A stretch of DNA of 64,000 bases from an uncultured virus (IMG/VR IMGVR_UViG_3300028394_000074) (IMGVR_UViG_3300028394_000074:1-64000); one strand, 5' to 3'. Shown: positions 754 through 58,863, counted from the stretch's first letter. Notes: a model not told the origin generated them from the sequence alone. A program made the numbers and translations.

Positions 754-761
754 AATTATCT

Positions 762-3602
762 TTATGCAGTCTGGTCAAGTAATACTAATGAACAAGCACG
801 AACTGTTAGTGTGCCAGAAGTTACTTTTAAACCTTGAATGTTTAAAGTTCCAGAAGCAGTTACAACAATTTCACCAATTAATCTGGCAGATGCTTCAGCG
901 GCGGCAGTAGTCCAACAAGTAGTACCAGCCGTTCCAAGTGTAGTTTGTCGGCTTGTTGCAACAAAAGTTGTTCCAGAAGCCTGTGCAACTTGTATCCATT
1001 CAACAGTAGATGTTCCACTAAAAGTAACAGTAAATTGTGCGCCAGCGGCTGAAGATGATTGACCAACTAATTCAACAATAAAACTATATGAGCCAGCAGT
1101 TAAAGTCCTTGTTAAATTAGTAATGTTAGTGAATGCAGTTGTGGCATTGGTATAAGCATTAGCCACTATCATTTCTGCGCCAGCACCGCTATAGCCAGAG
1201 ATACCAGAGTAGCCAGAGATACCAGAGTAGCCAGAGTAGCCAGAGTAGCCAGAGATACCAGAACCACTATAGCCAGAGATACCAGAACCACTGTAGCCAG
1301 AGATACCAGATCCACTGTAGCCAGAGATACCAGATCCACTGTAGCCGGAGATACCAGAGTAGCCAGAGTAGCCAGAGATACCAGAACCACTATAGCCAGA
1401 GATACCAGAACCACTGTAGCCAGAGATACCAGATCCACTGTAGCCGGAGATACCAGATCCAGAATAGCCAGAGATACCAGATCCACTGTAGCCAGAGATA
1501 CCAGATCCACTGTAGCCGGAGATACCAGATCCAGAATAGCCAGATATACCAGATCCAGAGTAGCCAGAGATTCCAGATCCAGAGTAGCCAGAGATTCCAG
1601 AGTAACCACTATAGCCAGATATACCAGAACCTGAGTAGCCAGATATACCAGATCCAGAGTAGCCAGAGATTCCAGAGTAACCACTATAGCCAGATATACC
1701 AGATCCAGAATAGCCAGATATACCAGATCCAGAGTAGCCAGAGATTCCAGAGTAACCACTATAGCCAGATATACCAGATCCAGAATAGCCAGATATACCA
1801 GAGCCACTATATCCAGAAATGCCGCTGTAACCAGAAACTCCTGAAAATCCAGAATACCCAGAAATACCAGAACCGCTGTAGCCTGAAATGCCAGAACCGC
1901 TATACCCTGAAATACCGCTGTAACCAGATATGCCTGATGTGCCACTATACCCACTTATACCACTACCGCTGTAACCTGAAATTCCTGAATATCCACTAAT
2001 ACCAGCAGTAATAGCTAAAAATAAATTATGATTATTAGAAAAGTTTGTAGTTCCTGAACCACTAGAAGAAGTTAAAGTAACAGGATAAGTCCAATAACTT
2101 GTAGAAGTTCCAGCGTTTGTATTTGTTGGTGCGCTATTAACAAGCCATATTTGATAGTTTGAACTTACATTTCTATCTTGAATAGTAAATGTCTGCCCTT
2201 GTTTTATTAAAGCTAAAAATATATCTGCATCAATTACATTGGGATTATCTGTTAAATGACTTACATTAATAGATGTTGCACTTGCCTGTGTCGCATTATT
2301 CCAAAGCACATGACCATCAGTAGGATAGCCAGATGTTAATGAAGTATTTGCTTGATATAAAAATACAGTTGAAGAAGTGCCTTGTGCGCCAGAATATCCT
2401 GAAATACCAGAGCCACTATATCCTGAAATACCAGAGTAACCACTGTAGCCAGATATACCAGAACCACTGTAGCCAGAGATACCAGAGCCTGAGTAACCAG
2501 AGATACCAGATCCACTGTAGCCAGATAGACCAGATCCACTGTAGCCAGATAGACCAGATGCACCACTGTAGCCAGAAATACCAGAACCACTGTAGCCAGA
2601 GATACCACTATAACCAGAGATACCAGATCCACTATAGCCTGAGATACCAGAACCACTGTAGCCAGAAATACCAGAACCACTGTAGCCAGAGATACCAAAG
2701 CCACTGTAGCCAGATATACCAGAACCACTATAACCAGATATACCGGAGTATCCAGATATACCAGCGCCGCTGTAGCCAGATATACCAGAGCCACTGTAAC
2801 CAGATATACCAGAGCCACTATATCCAGAGATACCGGAAGTGCCGGTATTACCACTATAGCCAGAAAAACCGGAAGCGCCTGTAGCACCACTGTAGCCAGA
2901 AAAACCGGAAGCGCCACTATAACCTGATGCACCTTGTGCTCCAGAGTAACCAGAAATACCAGAACCAGAGTAACCAGATAGGCCGGCACCACCAGCAGAA
3001 CCACTGTAACCCGACATACCAGAGTAACCAGAGAAACCAGCCGTACCCATGATGGAGTCCACCCACTGACAACCATCAACGTCACAGTAATAAATCTTTA
3101 ACTTACCAGCAACGTCGTCCCACCACATTGCTCCTGCACCGGGGGACGGAGGAGGTGATGCTCCAATGTATACAGAGCCAGAATATCCAGACGCGCCAGA
3201 GTAACCTGAGATACCAACAAATCCAGAGAATCCAGAAGTGCCACTGTAGCCAGAGATACCAGAATATCCTGATGCACCAAATCCACCAGATGTGCCAGAT
3301 TGGCCTGACCAACCAGAAATACCTGAGTAACCGGATTTACCAGAGTAACCAGATAATCCAGAATATCCAGACGAGCCAGAGACAGGGCCAACAACTTCTG
3401 TTGATCCGTCGCTGTAGTAAATTGTTAGATAACCAGTTGTTGGGTTATAGATAATATTGGTAATGAGTTTGCCGGGCGTGGCAGCGTTAGCGATCTGGGA
3501 GACAGACGCTTGTTTTGTTACACCACCTTGTACAACTACCGTTTGCTCGTTACCTGTTAGGGTTGTAGCAACCGGTAGTCTGGTTATGGGCTGATCTGAC
3601 AT
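762..3602 (-). CDS. SGYSG/SGISG-repeat collagen-like tail fibre/virion protein, 946 aa
   Basis: N-terminal virion-attachment-like segment (ITRLPVATTLTGNE), long Ser-Gly-X repeat blocks separated by globular inserts, beta-rich C-terminus. Confidence 0.75.
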   Translation of the reverse strand: MSDQPITRLPVATTLTGNEQTVVVQGGVTKQASVSQIANAATPGKLITNIIYNPTTGYLTIYYSDGSTEVVGPVSGSSGYSGLSGYSGKSGYSGISGWSGQSGTSGGFGASGYSGISGYSGTSGFSGFVGISGYSGASGYSGSVYIGASPPPSPGAGAMWWDDVAGKLKIYYCDVDGCQWVDSIMGTAGFSGYSGMSGYSGSAGGAGLSGYSGSGISGYSGAQGASGYSGASGFSGYSGATGASGFSGYSGNTGTSGISGYSGSGISGYSGSGISGYSGAGISGYSGISGYSGSGISGYSGFGISGYSGSGISGYSGSGISGYSGSGISGYSGISGYSGSGISGYSGASGLSGYSGSGLSGYSGSGISGYSGSGISGYSGSGISGYSGYSGISGYSGSGISGYSGAQGTSSTVFLYQANTSLTSGYPTDGHVLWNNATQASATSINVSHLTDNPNVIDADIFLALIKQGQTFTIQDRNVSSNYQIWLVNSAPTNTNAGTSTSYWTYPVTLTSSSGSGTTNFSNNHNLFLAITAGISGYSGISGYSGSGISGYSGTSGISGYSGISGYSGSGISGYSGSGISGYSGFSGVSGYSGISGYSGSGISGYSGSGISGYSGYSGISGYSGSGISGYSGSGISGYSGYSGISGYSGSGISGYSGSGISGYSGYSGISGYSGSGISGYSGSGISGYSGSGISGYSGSGISGYSGSGISGYSGSGISGYSGSGISGYSGSGISGYSGSGISGYSGYSGISGYSGSGISGYSGSGISGYSGSGISGYSGSGISGYSGYSGYSGISGYSGISGYSGAGAEMIVANAYTNATTAFTNITNLTRTLTAGSYSFIVELVGQSSSAAGAQFTVTFSGTSTVEWIQVAQASGTTFVATSRQTTLGTAGTTCWTTAAAEASARLIGEIVVTASGTLNIQGLKVTSGTLTVRACSLVLLDQTA

Positions 3603-5133: not shown

Positions 5134-5165
5134 CTACTTATGCAAAATGAAGAGAAAAAACGCCC
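5134..5165 (-). promoter_or_regulatory. Phage late promoter GGGC-N17-TGCATAAGTAG
   Basis: Same motif with the same 17-nt spacer at 6 loci. Confidence 0.8.
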
Positions 5166-5172
5166 TAAAAGC

Positions 5173-5197
5173 AAAAAACCCCGCCGAAGCGGGGTTC
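5173..5197 (-). terminator. Intrinsic terminator after the major capsid gene
   Basis: AACCCCGC-TTCG-GCGGGGTT then a T-run on the minus strand. Confidence 0.8.
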
Positions 5198-8427: not shown

Positions 8428-8868
8428 TTAATCTACAAACGCTTTCATTTTCTGTGCCGCTTCAAATGACTTGATCTTAGAGATCACTTCACGCGCCTGT
8501 AGTGTAATAAACACCACTGGAGCGCCATCGTCGTCTGGTTGCACAACAAAACGGTCGCCGCCGTACTTAATTGTACGAACTAAGTCACCAACGCTACACC
8601 AAGGGCCTTCTGGCCATGGGGTAAGGTCATCTGGGCTTTTATACGCCAGTGGACCAATATTGATTACTTTAGCTACTGTCTCGTTAAAACGTAAGGTTTG
8701 TTTGGTTTCATCAACTAAGATGATACCGCCTTTACTTGTCGTCTTTTCCCTGCGCAACTGCACAAGTACTCTGTCTCCAAGAATCTCAACGCCCGAGTCT
8801 ACCTCTGGAAAGCATTCCTGCTCTGAACGTAAATCTGGCTCACTTTTACTATTAAAATCAATTGGCAT
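8428..8868 (-). CDS. groES: Co-chaperonin GroES-like protein
   Basis: LGDRVLVQ...KTTSKGGIIL...AKVINIGP...VGDLV..KYGG, the Cpn10 signature. Confidence 0.8.
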   Translation of the reverse strand: MPIDFNSKSEPDLRSEQECFPEVDSGVEILGDRVLVQLRREKTTSKGGIILVDETKQTLRFNETVAKVINIGPLAYKSPDDLTPWPEGPWCSVGDLVRTIKYGGDRFVVQPDDDGAPVVFITLQAREVISKIKSFEAAQKMKAFVD

Positions 8869-8898: not shown

Positions 8899-9087
8899 TT
8901 AGTTTTCATCATCCTCTGTTAGGAGGTCTTCTAGAATTGCCATGGCTTGTTTTAAGCCATCACGATTACCCAATACTCTTTGATAAGAATCAAAGTTATG
9001 GATGTTGGAACCTGAAGCTAGAACTTCGGTTGTTTCTTTATCCGCTTCTTTCAAGCGGCTTATGTACTCAGAAAGTATGTCTCTCAT
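8899..9087 (-). CDS. Small head-module protein (MRDILSEY..., probably leaderless)
   Basis: ATG lies 4 nt after the promoter motif; the longer ORF-track start overlaps the promoter. Confidence 0.55.
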   Translation of the reverse strand: MRDILSEYISRLKEADKETTEVLASGSNIHNFDSYQRVLGNRDGLKQAMAILEDLLTEDDEN

Positions 9088-9091
9088 ATTA

Positions 9092-9123
9092 CTACTTATG
9101 CAAAGAGGCGAAATATTCCGCCC
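9092..9123 (-). promoter_or_regulatory. Phage late promoter GGGC-N17-TGCATAAGTAG
   Basis: Exact motif, 17-nt spacer. Confidence 0.8.
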
Positions 9124-12247: not shown

Positions 12248-13156
12248 TTATTTTCCAGAAATGTGTTTTTGAATTAGCATTTTGCTAATATCTTTAAATG
12301 GTTTTACTTTGCCACCTTTTTTAAAACCAGCAGCGTTGCCCATTATATCAACATTTGGCATTTGTGCGGGTTCTTGTGGTGCGTCTTTATCAATCACCGG
12401 AATCGGAGGAGGTGGGACTGGATTATGATACGCATCCCGAATAGTGTTTAAAAGTTCAGTATTTTTTGGATGGCTAACATAATCCATGTTTGCTTTCATA
12501 CCAGCCAAATATTGTGGGCTGGTTTGTTTATCTTCACTAATGCCAGTGCCAAACCAATGGTTAAATGGGTCGCCACCTTTTAATTTTGCTTTTGCGTGGG
12601 CATCATAAATTGCTGGCCCAAATCCAGCGGCTGCAGGATCGTAACCTTCTTTTACTAGGTTACGATAAATCTCTAAAGACTTTGGATCTCGGTAGTTAAA
12701 CTGGTTATATCCAAGATTGGTTCTACCTTCTTTAAACACCATAGCAGCTAACTGTTCTGGTGAGAATTGTGGCACGCCATGTTTTTCACCAGCACGCATA
12801 ACACTGATCCAATTTTTTAATGCGTTAGAGTCAATTTCACTAGGAAGTGTTTCCAAACCTTCTTTTGTGGTGTGTTTTGGAATTGTCCCACGGCGGTGGT
12901 ACTTTACAGGCGCTGAATCTTGAAAATAGAAAAACTCAGGTTGTCCATGATACATTGGCATCTGAACATCTGAGGGTAGATCTTTTGGTGTTACCGATGG
13001 AGCTCTTCCCATTGCCAAACCAGCAGATGGTGCTGCCGCTGCTAATGCCGCTTGCATCTGTGCTTGAGATGGAGTTTTGCCACCAGCTTGCATATGAGGA
13101 ATGCCAGCTTGCTCAAGAATCATTTGATTGGGAGTTTTAATAAGGGAGAGCGTCAT
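12248..13156 (-). CDS. Putative internal virion protein, possible lysozyme-like domain
   Basis: Bracketed by HMQAGG and GFKKGG motifs; LAAMVFKEGR resembles a transglycosylase catalytic helix. Confidence 0.45.
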   Translation of the reverse strand: MTLSLIKTPNQMILEQAGIPHMQAGGKTPSQAQMQAALAAAAPSAGLAMGRAPSVTPKDLPSDVQMPMYHGQPEFFYFQDSAPVKYHRRGTIPKHTTKEGLETLPSEIDSNALKNWISVMRAGEKHGVPQFSPEQLAAMVFKEGRTNLGYNQFNYRDPKSLEIYRNLVKEGYDPAAAGFGPAIYDAHAKAKLKGGDPFNHWFGTGISEDKQTSPQYLAGMKANMDYVSHPKNTELLNTIRDAYHNPVPPPPIPVIDKDAPQEPAQMPNVDIMGNAAGFKKGGKVKPFKDISKMLIQKHISGK

Positions 13157-13164
13157 ATCTATAA

Positions 13165-13196
13165 CTACTTATGCAAAATAGCTTGTATGTTCGCCC
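13165..13196 (-). promoter_or_regulatory. Phage late promoter GGGC-N17-TGCATAAGTAG
   Basis: Exact motif, 17-nt spacer. Confidence 0.8.
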
Positions 13197-15880: not shown

Positions 15881-16109
15881 GAGCTGGCACCATTTTGAAC
15901 ACCCGAGGCAGCTTCCCAGCTTGCCGTCGTTTTTTACATTTCGCTGCCTTGTCTCGCTCAAGTGCTCGTTGGAACGCTTCTAGACTGAGCCAGCGTTCGC
16001 CACGAAAACCATTGGCAAGCACATCAGTGCGGTAGTTGTAAAACACCATTCCCTCGTAAACGTCGCCGAGCTTGAATGGTTGTTTTGTTTTGGGATTAAG
16101 TCTCTTCAT
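15873..16109 (-). CDS. Hypothetical basic protein (MKRLNPKT..., probably leaderless)
   Basis: ATG 4 nt downstream of the phage promoter motif. Confidence 0.55.
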   Translation of the reverse strand: MKRLNPKTKQPFKLGDVYEGMVFYNYRTDVLANGFRGERWLSLEAFQRALERDKAAKCKKRRQAGKLPRVFKMVPAHV

Positions 16110-16113
16110 ACAT

Positions 16114-16145
16114 CTACTTATGCAAACTCTATACACATGCCGCCC
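16114..16145 (-). promoter_or_regulatory. Phage late promoter GGGC-N17-TGCATAAGTAG (packaging operon)
   Basis: Exact motif, 17-nt spacer. Confidence 0.8.
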
Positions 16146-23588: not shown

Positions 23589-23875
23589 TCTTAAAAACCC
23601 TTACTGTTGCGTTCATCCTAACTTCATTCCATCCAGCACAAGCTGACGAGTACTTTGCTTTTGCTCCCAACACAATTGGTGGGTGGACGATGCTGACCGA
23701 GAACCCATGTCGGTACGACAAGCACCTACCCGAGGCATACGCAACCAACCAAAAGAATGAAAAGGCTTATGGGTGTTACTGGTTTGGGAATAAGGTGATT
23801 TACTTTCGAGATTCCCAAGGCAATGTGCGTTACATGGAAAAGAAAGATTTTATACTACGCAGAAATATGCTATAA
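23585..23875 (+). CDS. Exported protein with signal peptide
   Basis: MILKTLTVAFILTSFHPAQA-D resembles an SPase I signal; two Cys. Confidence 0.55.
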   Translation: MILKTLTVAFILTSFHPAQADEYFAFAPNTIGGWTMLTENPCRYDKHLPEAYATNQKNEKAYGCYWFGNKVIYFRDSQGNVRYMEKKDFILRRNML

Positions 23876-23876
23876 T
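23868..23876 (+). promoter_or_regulatory. Host sigma70 extended -10 promoter for the sigma gene
   Basis: TGcTATAAT upstream of GGAG SD and TTG start at 23909. Confidence 0.5.
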
Positions 23877-23908
23877 GGGTGACCCCCAATCCAATTGGAG
23901 ATTCCCTA

Positions 23909-24484
23909 TTGAAAACCCGCAAAAATGCGTTGACTGATTATATGCAGTCGTTGTACAAGATCCCCACGCTGACCCTTGAGGAAGAGGCAAAGCTGGGGAT
24001 TCTGATCGCTCAAGGTGACGAGGCAGCCCTCGATAGATTAGTAACTCACAACCTACGCTTTGTAGTTTCAGTCATTAAAAAGATGCCGAACTGGGCGCAT
24101 TCCAATATGCCCATGGAAGACCTTTTATCATTCGGCAACGAGGCTTTGCTCAATGCAGCCCGATCCTGGAAACCGATGGGCAAAATCCGGTTTGCCTCCT
24201 ATGCCAAGAAATTCATACACTTCGATGTCAACCGGGGTGTTGCCAATACCAAGAACATTATTCGACTGCCAGTAAACATTACTGAAGAGATCCGAAGAAT
24301 CAAATATACCGAGCGCGTGCTGAGTCAAACCCTCCAGCGTGAGCCGACCGACACAGAACTGGCCGACAGGCTGGGAGTGTCAACCACGCGCATTGCATAC
24401 ATTAATTCCATAATCAGTAAAGAGCCAGTAAGCTTAGAGATATTTAATTCCGAACATTTAGAACAAGAAGGATACGATGACTGA
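23909..24484 (+). CDS. Sigma70-family sigma factor, regions 1.2-2-3 only (no region 4)
   Basis: YMQSL..IPTLTLEEEAKL, LVTHNLRFVVSVIKK, EDLLSFGNEALL, RFASYA, IIRLPVN, LQREPTDTELA; ends just after EPVSLE. Confidence 0.85.
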   Translation: MKTRKNALTDYMQSLYKIPTLTLEEEAKLGILIAQGDEAALDRLVTHNLRFVVSVIKKMPNWAHSNMPMEDLLSFGNEALLNAARSWKPMGKIRFASYAKKFIHFDVNRGVANTKNIIRLPVNITEEIRRIKYTERVLSQTLQREPTDTELADRLGVSTTRIAYINSIISKEPVSLEIFNSEHLEQEGYDD

Positions 24485-24812
24485 AGAACAGATTCGAGCT
24501 TATAATAGATTTATTCGTGCTCGTGATAGAGTCAAACTAGTAAAAACCAAAGAGAACTTTAAAAATGCTTATATTCCTCATCGTGATTTTATTGATAGTA
24601 TACATATCAATGGATTGAACCATCCGCTTTTTGTGGTGAACGATGAGTGGATTGAATACAAAGAGGCATCATCAGCATGGTGGGCGATTGAACCCAGATA
24701 CCGCCATGAAGAACGCTTAAGGGCAACCCGAGGCGATTATGGAGATTCAGATAACTGGGATGAACCAAATGAAGTTGAAACATTAGACACTTTCTTCAAG
24801 GAGGAGAAATGA
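24477..24812 (+). CDS. Hypothetical protein
   Basis: Overlaps both neighbouring genes. Confidence 0.6.
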   Translation: MTEEQIRAYNRFIRARDRVKLVKTKENFKNAYIPHRDFIDSIHINGLNHPLFVVNDEWIEYKEASSAWWAIEPRYRHEERLRATRGDYGDSDNWDEPNEVETLDTFFKEEK

Positions 24813-26185
24813 AATACTTATCAGTATGCTCTGGAGTTGAGGCTGCCACAGTAGCATGGCATGACTTGGGCTTTGAGCCAGTAGCATTCTCGGAGATTGA
24901 AAAATTTCCGAGTGAGGTGTTGAACTTTCGTTACCCCAATGTACCAAACATGGGTGACATGACTAAATATAAGGAGTGGAAATTAAATGAATCAATCGAC
25001 CTTCTTGTGGGAGGAACCCCATGCCAATCTTTTAGCGTCGCAGGGCTTAGAAAGGGACTCGAAGACCCTCGAGGAAACCTCATGCTCACATATGTTGGAA
25101 TTCTTGACAAGTTTAGACCCAAGTGGTGCGTTTGGGAAAACGTGCCAGGTGTCCTCAGTTCCAACGGAGGACGGGATTTTGGTTCCTTCCTCGGGGCGCT
25201 GGGCGAACTCGGGTATGGGTGGGCCTTCCGTGTCCTTGATGCTCAGCACTTTGGAGTACCACAAAGACGCCGCAGAGTCTTCGTTGTTGGATGTCTTGGA
25301 GACTGGGTCAGTCCCGCAAAGGTTCTTTTTGAGCCCGAAAGCTTGCGCCGGAATAATCCGAAGAGCAAAGGTAAGAAACAAAGTGCTCCCGCCTTTACTT
25401 CATCAAGCTTTGGAGGCTACAGTGAAGGAGTCGGGACAATCCGAGCTGCTGGAGGAGATCTCGGTGGCGGATCAGAAACTCTGATTGCTACACCCGATGG
25501 TAACCACACCACTGGCTCACTACTTGCCAGAGATTACAAAGGGATTGGAAATCAAGATTTAACCGATGGTCGTGGATTGGTTGTGTATGAAAACCATCCA
25601 TCGGATTCAAGAGTTAAAGAGATGGGTGATGTATGTCAAACTGTGACTAGTAGCTGGGGAACTGGTGGTGGCAACATACCATTTGTTCAACCGATTGCGT
25701 TAGCTGAGAACACCATTGGTCGCAAACCATTAAATGGTGGTAATGGAACTGGTTATACCGAAGGTGGACCTATGTACACATTGAACGCTACTGGGGTACA
25801 TGGTGTTGCAGTTGATATGTACAACCTTACATTGAATGACAAGACTACTCAAACCCTTAGAGGTTTTGGACACATTGACCATGTAGGTGGAACTTTTGAG
25901 CCCATTGTGTTGGAAGATCAAGGTGGTAGCGTGATGCGTGTTACCAATAGTGGCGTTGTAGGTACATTGCGCAGAGAATCACATGGGCATGAACCTAGCG
26001 TTATACACAACATGGCAGTCAGAAGGCTTACACCGATTGAATGCGAGCGTTTACAGGGTTTTCCCGATGACTACACTAACATCAAAGCAAAATGTCCCGA
26101 TGGGCCTCGTTACAAGGCTATGGGCAACAGCATGGCAGTACCGGTTATGAAGTGGATTGGACAACGAATAAAGGAAATGTCATGA
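24809..26185 (+). CDS. C5 cytosine DNA methyltransferase with a long modular variable region
   Basis: Motif I CSGVE, IV GGTPCQSFS, VI ENVPG, VIII PQRRRRVF, then RRLTPIECERLQGFPD and YKAMGNS. Confidence 0.92.
   Translation: MKYLSVCSGVEAATVAWHDLGFEPVAFSEIEKFPSEVLNFRYPNVPNMGDMTKYKEWKLNESIDLLVGGTPCQSFSVAGLRKGLEDPRGNLMLTYVGILDKFRPKWCVWENVPGVLSSNGGRDFGSFLGALGELGYGWAFRVLDAQHFGVPQRRRRVFVVGCLGDWVSPAKVLFEPESLRRNNPKSKGKKQSAPAFTSSSFGGYSEGVGTIRAAGGDLGGGSETLIATPDGNHTTGSLLARDYKGIGNQDLTDGRGLVVYENHPSDSRVKEMGDVCQTVTSSWGTGGGNIPFVQPIALAENTIGRKPLNGGNGTGYTEGGPMYTLNATGVHGVAVDMYNLTLNDKTTQTLRGFGHIDHVGGTFEPIVLEDQGGSVMRVTNSGVVGTLRRESHGHEPSVIHNMAVRRLTPIECERLQGFPDDYTNIKAKCPDGPRYKAMGNSMAVPVMKWIGQRIKEMS
24987..25484 (+). 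CDS. Overprinted methyltransferase beta-like subunit in an alternative frame
   Basis: SSLLDVLE..VPQRFFLSPKACAGIIRRA..R.K.LPPLL..AL; AAGGAG SD upstream; layout like the M.EcoHK31I beta subunit. Confidence 0.65.
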   Translation: MNQSTFLWEEPHANLLASQGLERDSKTLEETSCSHMLEFLTSLDPSGAFGKTCQVSSVPTEDGILVPSSGRWANSGMGGPSVSLMLSTLEYHKDAAESSLLDVLETGSVPQRFFLSPKACAGIIRRAKVRNKVLPPLLHQALEATVKESGQSELLEEISVADQKL

Positions 26186-26376
26186 TAGTAATACCATCGG
26201 ATGTATACGACAAGGATGGCAATCTATTGAGGATTGAATTTTACAACGAATTGGGTTCGTTTGAGATTCAGTCGTTGTGGGATCCAGCGGATGAACAAAC
26301 CAGTGAAAACCGAAATGAATTTCGAAAATGGAGTTACACCATGGTCAAAAGGCAAAATTATGAAGTGGCTAACTAA
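26182..26376 (+). CDS. Hypothetical protein (MIVIPSD...)
   Basis: ATGA coupling with the MTase stop codon. Confidence 0.5.
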   Translation: MIVIPSDVYDKDGNLLRIEFYNELGSFEIQSLWDPADEQTSENRNEFRKWSYTMVKRQNYEVAN

Positions 26377-26391
26377 ATTGTTGCAGTGCAT

Positions 26392-26593
26392 CCTGTCTAC
26401 CCTGTCTCTATTGTGGCGCATCATAATATGCCAAAAGCACTAGATGTAGTGGTTGACTAGGTGCAAACCTACTGGAAATCCATAGAAGACATAGAAGACA
26501 TAGTAATATTGAATTATTTCTTTTTAAAATTAAAATAAAATAAAAAGATATAGGGTAAAGTGAGTTAGACCGTGGATACCCTGTCTTCTATGG
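26392..26593. repeat. Origin-like element B upstream of the primase-helicase
   Basis: 9-bp repeats (CATAGAAGA x2-3), AT core, TGGATACCCTGTCTTCTATGG shared with element A. Confidence 0.65.
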
Positions 26594-26666
26594 CGAATCA
26601 TAACTAAAAGTAATAAGCTATATAACTAAAAATTATATAGGTACACCACCAAAAGTGCCTATAATT

Positions 26667-26677
26667 TGCATAAGTAG
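26667..26677 (+). promoter_or_regulatory. Phage promoter, -10 element only (TGCATAAGTAG)
   Basis: Exact -10 motif with no GGGC at 17-nt spacing. Confidence 0.7.
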
Positions 26678-26700
26678 AAGAGCACAGAAGAGGAAAACAG

Positions 26701-29007
26701 ATGAAGCCGAAGGTCTTACCAGTATTATTCCAAAATATACCTCTTGCACTACGCACAATCCCACGCTGGACACTGTGGAATTATGTAGAAGTGGGAGAGA
26801 ATGAAACAAAACGCTGGTCAAAACTGCCAGTACAACCCTCTGGCAAGGCTGCCAGTTCAACAAACGCATCAACATGGACAGACTTTCATTCTGTCGAGGC
26901 AGCATACCTAACCGCCAAGTTTGATGGCATTGGATTTGTATTTACAAAAGATGACCATATTGTTGGCGTTGATATGGACGATTGCTTTGATGAGCAAACC
27001 CTTAAGTTCACCAACCCCATGTTAGAGGCGATTGCCAGTAAGATTGATGGTTACATGGAGATCAGCCCATCGGGTACTGGGGTCAAAATATTTACACTGG
27101 GCGACATCCCTAGTGCATTTGTTGACCACAGCATTGGTCTTGAAGTGTACAAAATGGGTCGGTACTTTACTGTTACAGGGCAAAAGATTCGTGGAGAGTT
27201 ACCAACCGAGTTGCAAGACTTTACTGACATCATCCCCGAGCGCACAGTACGCTTAACTGGTGATGCCTTTGCTGACTACAACCCACCGCTTGATGGTTGG
27301 GACTTAGCTAAAGTTGAAACAGAACTACTACCAAACTTTGACCCAACTTACTACACCGATTGGTTGCAAGTGGGGATGTGTTTACATCATCAATTCCAGG
27401 GCGACATCGAGGCTTGTGAGGCATGGGATCGCTGGTCATATGGTGATGGTAGCGTGGAAAGTTATAACAATAATGCGTGCGAGAACAAGTGGAAAACCTT
27501 TAGTCAAAAGAGTGGTGGAGCAACGCTACGCACATTGACTTATAAAATATCATCGAACAAACGCAACGATGCGTTAGCCAAGGGTGATGTGATTCTGTCT
27601 GCAGCTCCATTGGAGAATGCTCAGACTTTTCTAGACTCAAAGTTCTCATCTGAAGAAGGTATCAAGCTAGTGCATTACTCGGGCGATTTTTTTAGTTACC
27701 AAGGTACGCACTATTCTGAGGTTGAAGAGTCAACCATTCGCTCTGAGTTGTATAAGTTTTTAGACAAGTGTAAGAAACAAGATCGCAAAGGTAATATTGT
27801 TGCGTTTGCCCCAAATCCAGCAAGCGTGAGTGGTGCGATGGATGGCATCAAGGCATTGACCCACCTACAGAATCAAGCCAATACACGCCCGCCAGTATGG
27901 CTCGATGGTTACAGCGCCAATCGTCCCGAGGCGAGTAAACTGGTCAGCGTTAAGAATGGTTTGTTTCACTTAGAAGATAACATCCTACTGCCACACTCAT
28001 TAGGTTTGTATACACAGAACTCATTGCCATTTGCATATGACCCGATGGCGCAATGCCCACTGTGGATGAAGTTCTTAGATGATGTTTGGGGAATGGATCA
28101 GCAGTCAATTGATTGCTTGCAAGAGATGTTTGGATACATATTATCGGGCGATACAGCACAGCAAAAGTTTTTTAACATCATTGGACCACGTCGTTCGGGT
28201 AAAGGCACAATCAACAAAATCTTAGTGGCGTTGCTTGGGCAACACAATACAGTAGCACCACAACTGGAGGAACTTTGTGATACATTTGGTTTGCAACCTT
28301 GGCTGGGTAAGCTCCTCGCTTCTTTTACTGATGCGAGAGCACCTGAACGAAACAGATCTTCTGTTGTATCTCAGCTTCTGCGGATTGTGGGCGGGGACAC
28401 TATTACCGTTAACCGTAAGAACAAGGAGAGTTGGAATGGTTATTTGCCTACTCGCATTGTTATTTACAGTAACGAGGTTCTTCAATTAACAGAGAACTCT
28501 AATGCACTTACTGGTCGTATGGTAGTGCTCAAGATGACACACAGTTTTTATAACAAGGAAGATACTAACCTATCAAACAAATTGATGGTTGAATTATCGG
28601 GCATTTTTAATTGGGCGATGGTTGGATTAAGTAGGCGGATTGAGCGTGGTGGGTATTTTGTGCAACCAGACAGTGGTAAAGAATTATTGGAAACCATGGA
28701 AGAGATGAGCAATCCAATTGGTGCGTTTATAGAGCAAGTTATGGAGTATGATCCCGAAGGTGAAGTAGATAAGGATCACGCTTTTATTTGTTATAAGCGT
28801 TGGGCAACAAAGCATGGGCTCAATCCAGGAAATGATCTATCCTTTAAGCGTAGATTCCTTGCATCAACACAAGATAAGAATGTAATATCAAGCGCCATCC
28901 GAGTCGATGGTAAACGACAACACAAATACTTGGGTATCAAGCTGACAGAAAAAGCTCTGGCCTATGTAGAAAAGCAAGTATACTTTGAGGAAGAGGAAAT
29001 ATTTTGA
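26701..29007 (+). CDS. Primase-polymerase / SF3 (D5-like) helicase
   Basis: GIGFV..VGVDMDDC, EISPSGTG, EVY..GRYFTVTG, PriCT-like YTDWLQVGM, Walker A GPRRSGKGT. Confidence 0.9.
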   Translation: MKPKVLPVLFQNIPLALRTIPRWTLWNYVEVGENETKRWSKLPVQPSGKAASSTNASTWTDFHSVEAAYLTAKFDGIGFVFTKDDHIVGVDMDDCFDEQTLKFTNPMLEAIASKIDGYMEISPSGTGVKIFTLGDIPSAFVDHSIGLEVYKMGRYFTVTGQKIRGELPTELQDFTDIIPERTVRLTGDAFADYNPPLDGWDLAKVETELLPNFDPTYYTDWLQVGMCLHHQFQGDIEACEAWDRWSYGDGSVESYNNNACENKWKTFSQKSGGATLRTLTYKISSNKRNDALAKGDVILSAAPLENAQTFLDSKFSSEEGIKLVHYSGDFFSYQGTHYSEVEESTIRSELYKFLDKCKKQDRKGNIVAFAPNPASVSGAMDGIKALTHLQNQANTRPPVWLDGYSANRPEASKLVSVKNGLFHLEDNILLPHSLGLYTQNSLPFAYDPMAQCPLWMKFLDDVWGMDQQSIDCLQEMFGYILSGDTAQQKFFNIIGPRRSGKGTINKILVALLGQHNTVAPQLEELCDTFGLQPWLGKLLASFTDARAPERNRSSVVSQLLRIVGGDTITVNRKNKESWNGYLPTRIVIYSNEVLQLTENSNALTGRMVVLKMTHSFYNKEDTNLSNKLMVELSGIFNWAMVGLSRRIERGGYFVQPDSGKELLETMEEMSNPIGAFIEQVMEYDPEGEVDKDHAFICYKRWATKHGLNPGNDLSFKRRFLASTQDKNVISSAIRVDGKRQHKYLGIKLTEKALAYVEKQVYFEEEEIF

Positions 29008-29558
29008 AGAAGAAACTTTACCATGTAATTAAAGTGCCAATTTTTCCAGCAAACATTCATGTGTGCTTGGATGAAATGTCATTTAAACAAGCACTGAAAG
29101 ACAAGAATGTAGTGCAAAAAGTGGAAATTATGGAAAATGGGGCGATGGCAGAAACCCATTCTGTACCAACAGCCGATGGTAGAACTTTCATTGGTTTATT
29201 GCTTGATCTAAATGCAATTGATGATTTAGATGCAACACTGGTTCATGAATCTGTACATTTGGTGTATCGTATTTTTGAATACATGTGCGAAGAAACACCC
29301 GGTGAAGAAACAAGGGCTTATCTTACAGAGTATGTTTATAAAGAAATAAGGAGAGTGTTAGATGAGCCTAGTGTTAGAAAAAGACATAGAGAATTACTTG
29401 AACAAAAAAATCAAGCAGTCATCGGGGCTCTCATACAAATGGCTGAGCAGCGTGACGGGAGTACCAGATCGGATAGTAATTCTCAACCAAAAGATCCTAT
29501 TCATAGAACTAAAAACACAGACAGGAAAACTGTCACCAAGGCAAGAGCTGGTATTTGA
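29004..29558 (+). CDS. HExxH-containing protein (metallopeptidase-like)
   Basis: TLVHESVHL...EETRAYL; 3' end overlaps the VRR-NUC gene. Confidence 0.5.
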   Translation: MKKKLYHVIKVPIFPANIHVCLDEMSFKQALKDKNVVQKVEIMENGAMAETHSVPTADGRTFIGLLLDLNAIDDLDATLVHESVHLVYRIFEYMCEETPGEETRAYLTEYVYKEIRRVLDEPSVRKRHRELLEQKNQAVIGALIQMAEQRDGSTRSDSNSQPKDPIHRTKNTDRKTVTKARAGI

Positions 29559-29646
29559 TGAACTGGGCGAAGCTGGATTTCCAGTTCATGTGTTGCGCTC
29601 TAAAGAAGATGTTGATGACTTTATAATAGAGGCGACCCGTGGCTAG
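29362..29646 (+). CDS. VRR-NUC nuclease
   Basis: EKDIE, GVPDRI, FIELK..GKLS..Q. Confidence 0.85.
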   Translation: MSLVLEKDIENYLNKKIKQSSGLSYKWLSSVTGVPDRIVILNQKILFIELKTQTGKLSPRQELVFDELGEAGFPVHVLRSKEDVDDFIIEATRG

Positions 29647-30448
29647 AAAAGAAGTGTATCACAATGAAAAAAAATACAGACAAACAAAACGTGGTCATAT
29701 TAGTAGAGCAATGGGTGCGGCATCAACTCGAGCAAGAAATGAATGTTTAGATTTTGATTTGGATTTAGATTATTTGGAATTGATTGCAACTGATTTTTGC
29801 CCAGTTTTTGGAACGCCATTTAACTGGGGTCAAGGAGAAAAAGTAAACGATTGGTCTCCGTCGTTAGATAAAATTATTCCAGAATTTGGGTACATCAAAC
29901 ACAATGTTATATTTATCAGTATGCTTGCTAATAAAATAAAGCAAGATGTTACTGAGAATGAAATTTATTTGGTAGGCGACTGGTTACACGAAGAAAGAAA
30001 GAAGACTTTAGATGCTCTCAAAAGATCAGCTCCACCCGTACCAATTGAACATGTTGTCATTAGCAAAGCAAATTCCGCATATCGGCTTATTTATGGAACC
30101 CGGACTTGGGAAGACCGCTACGGCGCTGACTATAATCAAGGAGAGCAAACCTGGGAAGACCTTGGTAGTTGCCCCGAAGCGAGTGGCAGAAACAGTATGG
30201 TCACAGGAATGTGGCAAATGGGAACACTTGAAATCTTTTACAGTGGCAAAGGTTATCGGTACGCCAGCGCAACGGGAATTAGCACTGAAGAGCTCCAGCG
30301 ACTTATATATTATAAACTTAGAGAACTTGGTTTGGCTATTGGATCAAAATCCAAAATTCGATTATCTGATAATAGACGAGAGCAGTCGGTTCAAGGATCC
30401 CTCGACCAAGAGATTCAAAGCCCTCAAAAAGCATTTGAAGGGTTTTAA
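29639..30448 (+). CDS. HNH-like (homing) endonuclease; 3' half overlaps the helicase gene
   Basis: CPVFG...SPSLDKIIPEFGYIKHNV.FIS..AN.IK. Confidence 0.65.
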   Translation: MARKEVYHNEKKYRQTKRGHISRAMGAASTRARNECLDFDLDLDYLELIATDFCPVFGTPFNWGQGEKVNDWSPSLDKIIPEFGYIKHNVIFISMLANKIKQDVTENEIYLVGDWLHEERKKTLDALKRSAPPVPIEHVVISKANSAYRLIYGTRTWEDRYGADYNQGEQTWEDLGSCPEASGRNSMVTGMWQMGTLEIFYSGKGYRYASATGISTEELQRLIYYKLRELGLAIGSKSKIRLSDNRREQSVQGSLDQEIQSPQKAFEGF

Positions 30449-31340
30449 AAGGCGTATAATACTCACTGGTACACCCACCCCTCAAGGGATGGCTGATCTC
30501 TGGTCACAGGTAGGTATATTGGACTTAGGTGAGCGTTTGGAAAGCAGTCTTACTCGGTTTCGTGATAAATATATGAACCCAGGGCAACGTAATCGGCACA
30601 CTGGGGTAATTTACAATTGGATATTAAAAGATGGTGCGGATAAAAGTATTACAGATAAGATTTCAGATATATGTTATTCGCTTAAGGCTGAAGATTATCT
30701 GCAGTTGCCTACGCTTACGACGCTATTTCATAATGTGGAATTAGATAAACCTATACGAGCAAAGTATAATGAACTTAGAAAAAACATGGTCGCTGAAATC
30801 GGTAAAGAACAGATCACAGCTCCAACAGCAGCGACATTGGCGGGGAAATTGCTCCAGTTTACATCGGGCGCTGTTTATGCCGAAAATGGAAAAGCGCAAG
30901 AGATACACCGCGCTAAATTGGAATATCTTGAGTCGATCATGGAAGAGTCTTCCTCCCCTACGCTGGTCTTCTACCACTTCAAACACTCGCTCCAACGGAT
31001 ACGTCTTCAATTCCCGCAAGCTGTGGTGCTGGACGATGACAACATTGCAGCGTGGCGTCGTGGCGAGATTCGTATGCTCCTTGCCCATCCCCAGAGTGGG
31101 GGAATCGGGCTCAATCTACAGTGCAACATTGGAGAGACAGCCCAAACGGTGTGGTTCGATCTACCATGGAGTTCAGAAAACTACATCCAGGCTAACGCTC
31201 GGATCTATCGCCAAGGGCAAGAAAAACCGGTTATTATACACCATTTAGTGGTGTCCAATAGCATTGATGGGCATGTAGTAAATGTATTAAATGGCAAAAT
31301 AACAATTCAAGATGCTTTAATGGATGCTTTAAATACATGA
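30012..31340 (+). CDS. SNF2-family helicase
   Basis: LHPYQ, PGLGKT, IIDES, LTGTP, GIGLNLQ, QANARIYRQGQ. Confidence 0.9.
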   Translation: MLSKDQLHPYQLNMLSLAKQIPHIGLFMEPGLGKTATALTIIKESKPGKTLVVAPKRVAETVWSQECGKWEHLKSFTVAKVIGTPAQRELALKSSSDLYIINLENLVWLLDQNPKFDYLIIDESSRFKDPSTKRFKALKKHLKGFKRRIILTGTPTPQGMADLWSQVGILDLGERLESSLTRFRDKYMNPGQRNRHTGVIYNWILKDGADKSITDKISDICYSLKAEDYLQLPTLTTLFHNVELDKPIRAKYNELRKNMVAEIGKEQITAPTAATLAGKLLQFTSGAVYAENGKAQEIHRAKLEYLESIMEESSSPTLVFYHFKHSLQRIRLQFPQAVVLDDDNIAAWRRGEIRMLLAHPQSGGIGLNLQCNIGETAQTVWFDLPWSSENYIQANARIYRQGQEKPVIIHHLVVSNSIDGHVVNVLNGKITIQDALMDALNT

Positions 31341-31636
31341 GAATAATAATAAATTGTAGTAAACCTCGTTTATCAGATGAAGAGGTAGATCCTTTAGAAT
31401 TGGATGACATTGATGCATTTGCTGGACATTTAGACAGTGGGTGGTTACCCTGGGATTTAGATGACTTAATTGATATTGAGCGTATTATAGCGGAGCGTAT
31501 GCCCAAAAAACAAAAATATGTTATTGAAGCATTTTTAACAGGTAGAACTTATTTAGATATAGGCGTTACTGAAAAACACTGGCGGTATCATTATGACAAA
31601 GCAATAGATTTTATTAAAGAGGAATTGAAATTATGA
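31337..31636 (+). CDS. Stand-alone sigma region 4-like HTH protein
   Basis: Acidic N-terminus, then MPKKQKYVIEAFLTGRTYLDIGVT..HWRYHYDKAIDFIKEEL, resembling the LP..QR.V....G.SY.EI....A...L sigma4 pattern. Confidence 0.5.
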   Translation: MRIIINCSKPRLSDEEVDPLELDDIDAFAGHLDSGWLPWDLDDLIDIERIIAERMPKKQKYVIEAFLTGRTYLDIGVTEKHWRYHYDKAIDFIKEELKL

Positions 31637-32044: not shown

Positions 32045-34827
32045 TATTAGAACTTGATGATGATTTTACTGATGAAATTACAAGAGTTAATTTGGCTGAA
32101 AGTTATGTCGGCGTTTTAGGCATGATGAAAAATGGCGACGCTTGGCATGAAGATGATGTCAAAGCCTGGAAAGAATTACTTCCAGCAATTAAATTGGTTG
32201 GCAGTTGGTACAGTACAGATTTTGATGCGGATATTAAAAAGGCAAAGAAAAGAAAATGAATTCAAAAATTGATTTAGAATCAGCAATTATGTTGGCGTGG
32301 CAAACCAGTGATGATATTAATTTGTTGTACAAACATCATGGTGACCATCCAGTTCCGATGACAGAAGATGATGTGGGTAATGCTTTATGGGGCATCAAAG
32401 TTTTACATGACATGCGCATGGAAAAATTGATGGATACCTACTGTCGCAAAATGGAACTTAACGAGTATTGCACCGACCCAGAAAAACTAGCAGCAAGAGA
32501 AACCATGTTTCAAACCCCAAAAAAGAAAGGTAGTAAAAAATGACTGAAGAAATTAAAAAAGACCCATTAGACAATGAGATTATTAATTTTTCATTTACAG
32601 TAGCACAGGTAAATGGTTTGTTGCAAATCCTAGCCAATACGCCCTATGTTGTATCAGCGGGATTAATTGGTTTGATTAACATGCAAGGCGAGCCGCAGTT
32701 TAGGGCCGCAATTGACCGAGTAAATAAGGAAAAAAATGAATCTCAAACAACTTCTTAATATGGCTGGTGTTCGTAATGACATTGCCAAAGCAGTCGAAAA
32801 AAAACAGTTAACAGCCGAACAAGAACTTAAAGTTCAAGAAGAGGCTATGGCAATGACCAAAATGATTCTTAATGATGCTCTTCGATATCGTAAAGAACAT
32901 GGTAACAACACACCTCCTTCAGAGCCTAAAAAGACTATTATCATGCCTAATGAATAATAACCAATTAGAACCGCTTACTGATGAAATGATGTGTGAAATT
33001 GCAGCAGATGCTATGTTTGATGTAATGACCTATGCCATGACAACGGGCTATGTATCATTGCAAGATGTTCATTTAGCAATTGGTCGAGCAATTGAGCAAG
33101 CTCATGGAATTGGAATTAAGCAGTGAAAAGGTTTAACTTTCGCAAGACGTACGGCAGACGTAAACCAATCGGATCATTTAGGAGATAACATGGAACTTTA
33201 TAAATTAGAACGTGGTGATAACTTCAAGATCATCGACCAAGAGACCAAGGTGCCACCAGCAGCACCACAACCAGCCGACAACGTAACGTACAAGTACACC
33301 CACGTCGACGGCATGTACGCACCATGCGAAGGCACAGACGGTGAGCGCTACTACTTTGCGGCATGGACAGAGGTAGAGAAGGTATGAACGCAAATGAACT
33401 AGCTGAAATAATCCAGCACCTTGAAAACGCAAAGTATGTTGGTGCAAGTAAAGCCGCCACAATGCTACGCCAGCAACAAGCTGAAATAGAGTATTGGAAA
33501 GAGAAGTTTAACAAAGCTATGGAGTTAAATAAATGAACAATGAACCAGTAGCGTGGATGCTTGCCGACAAAGAAAAAGAACATATACGTAGCATTATGGC
33601 GGTGCAACATGATTTTGTTCCTGAAGGATGCGTTGAAATTCCACTCTACACCCATCCAGCAAAAGAATTAGGTTACAACGACATTATGGGAACATGGTGG
33701 GAAACAATGCCCAATGCAAAAAGTTGTGAAGGTGTATTTGAATTTGCTAGAGCAATACTAAGAAAGGCACAAGAGAAATGAACGGAATAACATTTAACAA
33801 GCAACCTAAAACCATTGGATATTGGCGATTATCTTATGGAGGTAGTAGTTATACACAATTTGCTATGTTTGGCAAACCAACAGACGAGCAAATTAAAAAC
33901 ACCGAAGAATTGCTTGGCTGGAAATGGGTTGATGAAAAGGCACAAGAGAAATGAACGCAAATGAACTAGCTGATTACATTACACAAAATTCCTATATTGG
34001 AACTGTAACTATGGAAGATGTAGCCACCACGCTTCGCCAACAACAAGCTGAAATTGAGGCGTTGAATCAGCGCATTGAGTACATGAGAGAAAAAGCAAGT
34101 CTTTGGGAGGCAGAGGCACACGCCGGTGGCTTTGAGGCTGGCAGGCAACAGGGCATGAAGCAAGAGCGGGCATTGTGGGAACTAGCGGCATCAACACAGG
34201 AGGCCTACATTTTAGAACTAGAAAACGGTTTGGAGTCTTCAATTAATTTAAACAAAGCACAAGCGGAGCGTAACAAATGACCACATTCACCACAGAAGAC
34301 AGGTTACATGCGGGAGAGTACCCATTAACCGATGAGCAGATTAAAGAACTGATGCCACTTAAACCATACGAAGAATATACAGAAATGGAAGCGCCGGATT
34401 TAATTGCGTTCGCCCGCGCCATCGAACGCGCCCATGGAATAGGAGAATAAGATGAGCATAACATTTACAGGTGGCCACGATACCATAGAAAAAGCTCAAG
34501 CAGAATTAAATAAACGAAAATATAAGGACAAATATACAATAGCCACTGTGTATTGCATGGAAAAAGAAAACGGAACTTTACATTTTGTAATACCAATTAA
34601 AGCCGTTGATTTGTTAATGGAATTTGACGAAAGAAACGAAAATGACTGAAATTGCAATATCATTCTTTATTGGCTTTATGGTCGGTCTTGTTATGCGCCC
34701 AAAAGACCCCGAGTTGAAACAGCAAATTGAGATATCCAACCGTAACTATCAGAAATATGAAGAAGAACTGAAATATTATAAAGATTTATGTAAATGGCAT
34801 GCTGATCAAAAAAGGGCGGATTCTTAA
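32041..34827 (+). other. Cluster of small coupled genes with shared N- and C-terminal modules
   Basis: Examples: 32256-32543, 32540-32758, 32736-32957, 32950-33126, 33190-33387, 33384-33536, 33533-33781, 33778-33954, 33951-34280, 34277-34450, 34452-34649. Confidence 0.6.
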
Positions 34828-34845
34828 AGTTTTTTGCATAAGTAG
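34814..34845 (+). promoter_or_regulatory. Phage late promoter GGGC-N17-TGCATAAGTAG (TerS operon)
   Basis: Exact motif, 17-nt spacer. Confidence 0.8.
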
Positions 34846-36239: not shown

Positions 36240-36263
36240 ACTTTAAAACTTTTTCACATTATG

Positions 36264-36306
36264 AAATGGGCTAGGTATAAAAACCTAGCCCATTTTGCAT
36301 AAGTAG
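36264..36306 (+). promoter_or_regulatory. Hairpin terminator overlapping a -10-only phage promoter
   Basis: AAATGGGCTAGGT/ACCTAGCCCATTT hairpin immediately followed by TGCATAAGTAG. Confidence 0.65.
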
Positions 36307-53085: not shown

Positions 53086-53116
53086 TACTAATACGCAGTT
53101 TTGGAGTTTTGTGCCC
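53086..53116 (-). promoter_or_regulatory. Variant phage late promoter GGGC-N17-CGTATTAGTA
   Basis: Same -35 and spacing; -10 shares G.AT.AGTA. Confidence 0.6.
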
Positions 53117-58831: not shown

Positions 58832-58863
58832 CTACTTATGCAAAAAAGGAGCAATTTATGCCC
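58832..58863 (-). promoter_or_regulatory. Phage late promoter GGGC-N17-TGCATAAGTAG (tail operon)
   Basis: Exact motif, 17-nt spacer; overlaps the endolysin stop codon. Confidence 0.8.

Follow-up and report, generated by a model that had tools for sequence, protein, structure and literature searches.

Sigma factors are normally single polypeptide chains and, to our knowledge, few natural ones consist of two proteins. Here, we describe a phage sigma-70-family factor that is probably made as two polypeptides, encoded on a 64,000-nucleotide stretch of DNA from an uncultured virus (IMG/VR IMGVR_UViG_3300028394_000074; hereafter the window, i.e. bases 1-64000 of a 67,824-bp IMG/VR virus record; G+C 42.6%, CheckV completeness 100%). 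The larger polypeptide, sigma2-3, carries regions 1.2, 2 and 3 and ends within region 3.2; the smaller one, a 99-residue protein encoded 7 kb downstream, has a predicted fold resembling region 4 and is referred to below as the sigma4 piece. Phage promoters built on a common core, TGCATAAGTAG, come in two classes, with and without a GGGC box at the -35 position. Hundreds of relatives appear to encode the factor as two proteins. What was computed directly is the domain content of the two polypeptides, the conservation of the truncation, the co-occurrence of the genes, the promoter geometry and the conservation of the promoter classes. On a timing that we infer from these data, sigma2-3 would act first and the sigma4 piece would be added later; the full two-step cascade is a tentative proposal, to which we would give slightly less than an even chance.

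The arrangement is of interest in three respects. In a widespread lineage of uncultured phages, it presents a host-like sigma factor with a clean cut separating domain 3 from domain 4. Its two promoter classes, which differ only in the box predicted for the detached domain, provide a testable model of middle and late timing. Finally, one sigma factor delivered in two instalments would be a natural counterpart of the engineered split-sigma logic gates.

Domain content and pairing of the two proteins

The sigma2-3 gene (23909-24484, plus strand) encodes 191 residues from a TTG at 23909, or 201 residues if translation starts from the GTG at 23879. Its product scores above the Pfam cut-offs for Sigma70_r1_2 (22.7 bits, cut-off 22), r2 (24.1, cut-off 24) and r3 (37.5, cut-off 25.3), displays no Pfam match to region 4 and matches PHROG 351, 'RNA polymerase sigma factor' (1.3e-26). 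When compared to primary sigma factors of solved structure, the alignment ends at EPVSLE and covers residues 165-319 of 423 in Thermus thermophilus SigA (phmmer, 3.4e-23) and 353-509 of 613 in Escherichia coli sigma70; residues 60-224 of 330 of RpoS are matched with an hhalign probability of 99.9%. The initial annotation, made from the sequence alone, had described a sigma70 homologue with regions 1.2, 2 and 3 that stops after EPVSLE without region 4, and both Pfam and the structure alignments bear this out.

After EPVSLE, the protein continues for 13 mostly acidic residues up to a stop codon overlapping the start of the next gene. Where the phage protein ends, the consensus of four aligned full-length sigma factors reads IS.DTPL.G.DE.S.LGDFLEDEN, from which it appears that the phage protein retains the initial, acidic half of region 3.2. 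The same acidic-tail ending was observed in all 105 relatives checked, a set of 26 related open reading frames (ORFs) and the 79 loci fetched with the large protein, over identities ranging from 100% down to 46%. Among the 120 large-piece homologues listed, most are 191 residues long and none is listed with a region 4 domain; in total, 204 IMG/VR contigs encode relatives of the large piece. A pseudogene or a frameshifted sigma gene is ruled out, because the stop point is conserved down to the lowest of these identities.

The gene for the sigma4 piece (31337-31636, plus strand) starts with an ATG overlapping the stop codon of the SNF2 helicase gene and encodes 99 residues, while RpoS extends for 106 residues past the point where sigma2-3 stops. 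Its first 40 residues contain ten D/E versus three K/R. We found 211 metagenomic relatives of this protein, and relatives on 472 IMG/VR contigs; two of 120 listed relatives bear the JGI label 'sigma24 family'. Members of the family share an invariant N-terminal motif, RLSDE(E/D)xDPxE. Behind it lie an acidic segment of variable sequence and then GW.PW; the C-terminal half is conserved and includes a putative recognition helix, TEK(Y/H)WRYH.

We modelled the small piece with AlphaFold2 from 30 sequences. In this model, residues 1-40 are disordered and helices span residues 41-54, 57-67, 72-75 and 79-97, with a confidence (pLDDT) of 89-95 for the block of residues 41-99. In a structural search of the model against 48,161 chains (VIA-align), rows 1-24 are sigma factors (Z 8.4-6.5; row 20 is unidentifiable from its title), headed by region 4 of E. 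coli SigmaE on -35 DNA (Z 8.4, root-mean-square deviation 2.8, 61 residues), and helix-turn-helix (HTH) domains of the LuxR/FixJ type enter the ranking only from row 25. The top rows from Foldseek are also all sigma4, with a probability of at least 0.9. At the sequence level, sub-threshold matches to Sigma70_r4_2 were obtained for 11 of 32 family members (best E 0.0046), the next family being matched by at most 2 of 32, and hhalign places residues 53-99 of the small piece onto RpoS 264-329, i.e. region 4 (P 0.0065). The fold, this weak but consistent sequence signal and the complementarity in size all agree with region 4, and the earlier description of a 99-residue product with an acidic linker-like start and a sigma4-like HTH is upheld by the composition and by the best matches of the modelled fold.

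Several observations weigh against this assignment. The 99-residue protein of the window has no match in Pfam or PHROGs and does not reach the curated Pfam cut-offs of Sigma70_r4 or r4_2. The best Foldseek E-value is 0.2, the hhalign probability of the RpoS alignment is 5.8%, about seven residues around the first HTH helix are missing in that alignment, and profile searches of the PDB with the small family returned chance-level rows only (ISWI E 0.2, FixJ E 0.77). Note also that, as the tool itself warns, a Z of ~8 for a small helical domain may reflect a mere common arrangement; for this reason, the VIA-align ranking weighs more than the score.

The same data could be accommodated if the truncated sigma2-3 were the whole sigma factor for all TGCATAAGTAG promoters and the 99-residue HTH protein were a separate late activator bound at GGGCG, off the sigma4 site on the beta-flap, which would recruit or stabilise the holoenzyme in the manner of a class II activator or of T4 MotA. 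Its fold is indeed common to activators of the LuxR/FixJ type (VIA-align rows 25, 33-35 and 40-43; best sequence hit FixJ, E 0.77), its sequence has no significant match to region 4, and a sigma factor without region 4 has a precedent at extended -10 promoters (see below). However, region 4 chains outrank every LuxR-type domain, and the sole repeated Pfam signal is Sigma70_r4_2. The conserved, acidic and disordered N-terminus resembles the half of region 3.2 that sigma2-3 lacks, rather than a domain for dimerisation or a receiver domain, the size of the small piece matches what the sigma factor lacks, and GGGCG is non-palindromic and located exactly at -35. Taken together, we consider a separate activator unlikely. 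Phages also encode many small sigma-directed proteins, and the 99-residue protein could be unconnected with the phage sigma factor, e.g. an anti-sigma or appropriator acting on region 4 of the host sigma70, or an unrelated HTH regulator, with GGGC read by something else. This appears very improbable given the sigma4-like fold, its complementarity to the truncation, the conserved pairing of the two genes and a -35 box restricted to late promoters; moreover, the protein matches no known anti-sigma family in Pfam or PHROGs.

Pairing of the two halves of a probable two-polypeptide sigma factor was examined from both genes. Starting from the small protein, we retrieved 80 loci, 26 of which extend 9.4 kb or more on the upstream side; in 25 of these, the truncated sigma gene is found 6.2-9.5 kb ahead of the small gene and on its strand, and in the 26th it is 11 kb upstream. 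Conversely, the large protein retrieved 79 loci, of which 32 extend 9.4 kb or more on the downstream side; the small gene was within reach in 27 and was found 10.2-11.3 kb downstream in four of the other five, the last one, without the small gene, being a 24-kb fragment. The genes thus co-occur in 26/26 loci counted from the small gene and in 31/32 counted from the large one, and both genes are retained in the relatives with a conserved promoter motif. As all these loci belong to a single syntenic lineage, in which all core genes co-occur, this counts only as weak to modest evidence of a partnership.

A profile search covering 1.84 billion representatives gave 35 hits, none of them a fused sigma2-3/sigma4 form. 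Thirty-two of these hits have at most 129 residues, and the others, of 229, 739 and 1251 residues, match parts of the family profile only: the first covers its N-terminal two thirds, and the two longest repeat stretches of 36 residues within positions 12-71. Proteins of 215-2000 residues likewise included no fused form, which is weak evidence. Modelling the two pieces jointly from the family alignments gave a score of 0.00 versus a mark of 0.32, without controls; this is not evidence either way. Sigma genes can be joined by DNA rearrangement, sigK/skin being the precedent. We exclude such a joining of the two halves here, since in every relative each piece is delimited by start and stop codons of its own and the intervening 7 kb carry the primase, nuclease and helicase genes.

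In some relatives, a second member of the sigma4-piece family is encoded ~1 kb upstream of sigma2-3 (L081:1037-1351, L261:7601-7945, L262:9809-10357 and L265:8829-9275), the usual copy being also present 7-9 kb downstream. This paralogue displays the N-terminal motif KLWEExxDPxE, the same TEK(H/K)WRYH helix and a C-terminal extension. No second copy was found in the genome of the window (G000), which has one, nor in five related records (G001-G005).

Phage promoters with and without a -35 box

We observed eight exact copies of TGCATAAGTAG in the window (1.69 expected with at most one mismatch; eight were reached in 0 of 100 shuffles) and nine in the whole genome, which contains no one-mismatch site and 20 two-mismatch sites. 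Every copy is oriented into a downstream operon. GGGC is located exactly 17 nt upstream of the core at 5134, 9092, 13165, 16114, 34835 and 58832, the chance of finding GGGC at a fixed offset being 0.0021 per site, and it is absent from the copies at 26667 and 36296, which precede replication operons. A seventh GGGC site, at 53086, has the core GCGTATTAGTA. The ninth genomic copy lies outside the window (65532, minus strand), before glycosyltransferase genes, and carries GGCA at the -35 position. The initial annotation had listed these eight motif loci, six with GGGC at 17 nt and two without, as we also find; the GGGC spacing stands, with two corrections to the positions. What had been given as a site at 34814 is the GGGC of the site at 34835, and at 53086 the GGGC is 16 nt, not 17 nt, upstream, in the same register as the others when the sites are aligned on AGTA.

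The resulting consensus for the late promoters is GGGCG-N15-16-TGCATAAGTAG. With CATAAG taken as the -10 hexamer, GGGC is found at -35 to -32 with a spacer of 17 bp, which is the canonical sigma-70 geometry; with the alternative hexamer ATAAGT, the spacer lengthens to 18 and the TG counts as an extended -10.

Promoters with the GGGC box (class A) are found on the minus strand at 5134-5165, before a gene of 153 residues and a tail fibre gene; at 9092-9123, before a GroES-like gene and the head module; at 13165-13196, before a gene of 302 residues and the portal gene; at 16114-16145, before small genes and the large terminase gene; at 53086-53116 (variant core GCGTATTAGTA), before a gene of 126 residues and the tape measure gene; and at 58832-58863 (with GGGCAT), before virion structural genes. 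On the plus strand, a class A promoter at 34814-34845 (GGGCGG-N15-TGCATAAGTAG) precedes a gene of 85 residues, a DUF6321 gene and a small-terminase-like gene. The two class B promoters, without GGGC, are both on the plus strand: the one at 26646-26677, in which CCAC replaces GGGC 17 nt from TGCATAAGTAG, heads the operon of the primase, VRR-NUC, SNF2 and sigma4-piece genes, and the one at 36275-36306, with no GGGC at -35, precedes the operon of the DUF2800 nuclease, SSB, RNR and DNA polymerase A.

At several class A promoters, the ATG of the first gene is located only 4 nt (sites 9092 and 16114; minus strand, 9077-9092 and 16099-16114) or 8 nt (site 13165; 13148-13165) past the 11-mer, leaving no room for a ribosome-binding site, and an ATG this close to the core is also present at several orthologous sites of G002, G003 and G004. 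These late mRNAs are thus probably leaderless, starting ~5 nt after the 11-mer, and this spacing supports a -10 element inside the 11-mer. G+C-rich hairpins followed by T runs occur just upstream of the promoters at 5134 and 36296 (5166-5190 and 36268-36291, respectively), so that operons seem to be insulated by a terminator directly ahead of the next promoter.

We then compared the two classes across relatives, for which records G001 to G004 were taken in full and G005 was added to locate sigma2-3. G004, whose sigma2-3 is 67% identical, contains seven exact copies of TGCATAAGTAG. In G002 (sigma2-3 48% identical) the core is TGCATTAGTA, and in G003 (47% identical) it is GCGTATTAGT, the same core as at the variant site 53086 of the window. 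No clear promoter core was found in G001, where the search was not taken further. In G000, G002, G003 and G004 together, GGGC is present at the fixed offset in 21 sites and absent in 16, and all 21 sites with GGGC precede packaging or virion operons. The box was found before the operon of the 85-residue, DUF6321 and TerS-like genes and before the portal gene in four of four genomes, before the GroES-like/head and the 153-residue/tail fibre operons in three of three, before the terminase gene in three of four (CGGC in the fourth), and before the tape measure and the virion genes in two of two each, where these were found. It is absent before the primase operon and before the nuclease/SSB/RNR/polymerase operon in four of four genomes. 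The division first noticed in the window, GGGC before virion and packaging genes and none before replication genes, is therefore real and conserved at the level of individual operons in three further genomes.

The -35 box GGGC(G) remains constant while the core drifts (TGCATAAGTAG, TGCATTAGTA, GCGTATTAGTA). Relatives whose sigma2-3 is only ~50% identical retain GGGC-N17-TGCAT(A/T)AGT, and even in these the recognition helix TEK(Y/H)WRYH of the small piece is nearly invariant.

The gene order is also informative. In G000, G002 and G004, sigma2-3 is followed by the GGGC-less primase promoter, the sigma4-piece gene, a GGGC promoter and the GGGC-less nuclease promoter. The nearest phage promoter upstream of the sigma4-piece gene on its strand in the window is the GGGC-less one at 26667, 4.7 kb away, whereas a separate GGGC-less promoter stands directly ahead of the sigma4-piece ATG in G003, L261 and L263. 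In none of the six records G000, G002, G003, G004, L261 and L263 does this gene lie behind a GGGC promoter.

Two observations count against a simple two-class scheme. First, G003 has extra GGGC-less copies of its core before the sigma4-piece, SSB, DNA polymerase and endolysin genes, and one upstream of the terminase gene; the copies at the endolysin and terminase genes indicate that the class rule is not absolute. Second, a palindromic TTTCACAnnGTGAAA-like box ends exactly at the GGGC position in GGGC-less promoters of several relatives (G003 23397 and 36073, L261 10340, L263 12396), which suggests that these promoters may need another factor and that the term '-10-only', used for them in the initial annotation, may not apply. 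In the window, a palindromic box, CACATTATGAAAT (36255-36267), lies 28 nt upstream of the 36296 core, with a hairpin between. These boxes may be operators of a dimeric regulator. A tie between the box and the second sigma4 paralogue was considered and rejected, as G003 has the box and no paralogue was found in it.

With such boxes at hand, one may argue that both sigma pieces are needed at every phage promoter, the GGGC-less ones being weaker or aided by another factor, e.g. a protein binding the TTTCACAnnGTGAAA box, so that there would be no step with sigma2-3 only. The palindromic boxes at the GGGC position in G003, L261 and L263 and near the 36296 core would fit this scheme, and the second sigma4 paralogue, encoded in the early region of some relatives, could then serve early or middle promoters. 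However, the sole sigma4-family gene of the window lies 4.7 kb behind a GGGC-less promoter; if the latter required the sigma4 piece, early read-through would have to start the loop. The site at 26667 is moreover without a palindromic box, and G003 has the box but no paralogue (in a record that is 81% complete). We regard a requirement for both pieces at all promoters as quite improbable.

Just ahead of the sigma2-3 gene, at 23868-23876 (plus strand), lies TGCTATAAT, a candidate for an extended -10 element of the host type, with TTTATA 16 nt further upstream. The early region that ends with sigma2-3 contains no copy of the phage core and holds nine of the 15 best sigma-70-like hits in a scan of 16-36 kb, although the number of such hits over this interval is at chance (58 found versus 56.6 expected). 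Among 16 relatives examined, TGCTATAAT is kept only in the close relatives L009, L013 and L046, and a distant one, L064, has TGgTATAAT. A host-type promoter ahead of the sigma gene and a sigma4-piece gene behind the GGGC-less promoter at 26667 had both been proposed, and both elements are present in the window; the host-type element, however, is not family-wide.

Proposed stepwise model and known two-protein sigma factors

The following sequence of events would account for the organisation of a sigma factor made in two parts. The host polymerase would transcribe the early region, including the sigma2-3 gene. Sigma2-3 would then bind the host core enzyme and read a -10-type element inside TGCATAAGTAG, the TG(C) just upstream possibly acting as an extended -10. 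Alone, it would be able to open promoters of the TGCATAAGTAG type that have no -35 box, i.e. those of the two replication operons. The 99-residue protein, whose gene is located in one of these GGGC-less operons, would be expressed from there and would take the place of sigma4, its acidic N-terminus completing region 3.2. From its fold, the promoter geometry and the conservation of the classes, this protein is predicted to read GGGCG at about -35, and would thereby switch on the packaging, head, tail and lysis-side operons. With the sigma4-piece gene in a GGGC-less operon and GGGC before the late operons, the likeliest order is sigma2-3, then the sigma4 piece, then the late genes.

A more speculative formulation, possible but in our view doubtful, is that of a plug-in sigma factor: sigma2-3 would be the 'middle' sigma factor as such, and a sigma4 module supplied later would add the reading of GGGCG, making a feed-forward timer by a cut at the region 3.2 linker. 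The second sigma4-family module encoded beside sigma2-3 in some relatives suggests that this lineage may exchange -35 readers on one -10 reader.

No published description of this arrangement was found in the full-text literature, a search from which subscription journals are largely absent. The action of sigma2-3 alone has a laboratory precedent: Kumar and colleagues reportedly found in 1993 that a sigma70 lacking region 4 works at extended -10 promoters. The GGGC-less phage promoters similarly keep TG(C) upstream of the -10-like hexamer, but the phage truncation is natural and conserved, whereas that of sigma70 was made in the laboratory.

Among natural systems, the SigO-RsoA pair of Bacillus subtilis (YvrI-YvrHa) is described as a sigma factor in which one protein provides the sigma2 function and another the sigma4 function, the two initiating transcription jointly (PMC8103513; 10.64898/2026.10.01.756105). 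The phage pair resembles it in this division over two proteins. It differs in domain content, SigO-RsoA being ECF-like and without region 3 and the phage large piece being of the group-1/2 type with regions 1.2, 2 and 3 (a comparison by description only). It differs also in gene organisation: yvrI-yvrHa is named as one operon (PMC8103513), whereas the phage genes are 7 kb apart behind different promoter types, the cut being in region 3.2. Sig7-Sig8 of Tn916 is reported as an element-encoded two-protein sigma factor that binds the host polymerase and drives the element's own promoter (10.64898/2026.10.01.756105). As in the phage, a two-protein sigma factor originates from a mobile element. In Tn916, however, one promoter is served by the two proteins together, in a positive loop, whereas the two promoter classes of the phage suggest stepwise use; the type of element, the host range and the domain content also differ, region 3 being present in the phage.

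Late promoters of phage T4 are built on a -10-type box alone; gp33 is not known to read DNA, and the sliding clamp (gp45) is required for activation. T4 gp55/gp33 nevertheless resembles the phage pair in combining a sigma2-like protein with a small second protein in the place of sigma4, and the initial annotation had cited it for this division of roles. The analogy holds for the division of roles between two proteins but is otherwise loose, since the late promoters described here carry a -35 box, at canonical spacing in 21 late promoters of four genomes; in addition, the small piece has a sigma4-like HTH and the large one is a recognisable sigma70 with region 3. Both T4 gp55/gp33 and SPO1 gp33/gp34 are listed as split sigma factors, and SPO1 gp34 with gp33 was historically described as a two-protein late sigma factor, according to the same source (10.64898/2026.10.01.756105). 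On a more recent account, SPO1 Gp33 is an inhibitor bridging beta, beta' and region 4 of sigmaA (PMC13401047, 2026), and thus not a sigma4 homologue. What is distinct in the phage pair is the combination of an intact region 3 in a host-like sigma factor, a cut at the 3.2 linker, two unlinked and differently controlled genes, and promoter classes with and without a -35 box.

Genome layout and further observations

The window is organised in blocks of alternating strand. The minus strand encodes the terminase, portal, GroES-like, head and tail fibre genes at 0.7-16.2 kb, and the tape measure, virion proteins, endolysin and tail fibres at 42.7-64 kb. Many small ORFs lie on the plus strand at 16.2-24.5 kb, with the sigma gene as the last one, followed by the genes of a C5 methyltransferase, a primase/D5 protein, VRR-NUC, SNF2 and the 99-residue protein, then by small ORFs, the small-terminase-like gene and the genes of the DUF2800 nuclease, SSB, RNR and DNA polymerase A. 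No tRNA was found in the window.

No close cultured relative was identified, the primase reaching no more than 29% identity in a set of 50,697 phage records; the 99-residue protein has no tblastn match in the same records, and a search for cultured relatives with a tail-fibre gene returned nothing. With megablast, 23879-31636 matched cultured phages in a single place, 24993-25345, which is part of the C5 cytosine methyltransferase gene and shares 77% DNA identity, over 5% of the query, with the Roseobacter phages CRP-821 and CRP-822.

The head operon is opened by a GroES/Cpn10-like gene at 8428-8868 (Pfam Cpn10, 3.9e-07; PHROG co-chaperonin). An ORF of 269 residues (29639-30448) shares 437 nt, in a different frame, with the SNF2 helicase ORF (30012-31340), and its match to endonuclease families (HNH/endonuclease VII-like) is confined to the first 123 residues; probably, one of these two ORFs has been predicted too long. 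Collagen-like repeats of the SGYSGISGY type fill several tail-fibre-like genes (1-3602 and 61180-62814 in the window, 65551-67428 in the genome). An 11-mer from this repeat is present in 89 copies, and as both ends of the record fall inside such repeats, the assembly may have broken there.

Finally, in distant relatives, the sigma2-3 gene is flanked by two near-identical arrays of 9-mer repeats (TGTCAAGGG or TTGTCAGGG) beside AT-rich DNA. These arrays are found at 3235-3446 and 10946-11157 in L146 (~7.7 kb apart), at 2906-3115 and 11042-11153 in L158 (~8 kb apart), and at 1060-1398 and 11210-11398 in L180 (~10 kb apart); they could be iteron-like origins or delimit a mobile cassette. Another repeat, TGTTTAAACA, is present in 25-37 copies per 20 kb in L168, L175, L178 and L180.

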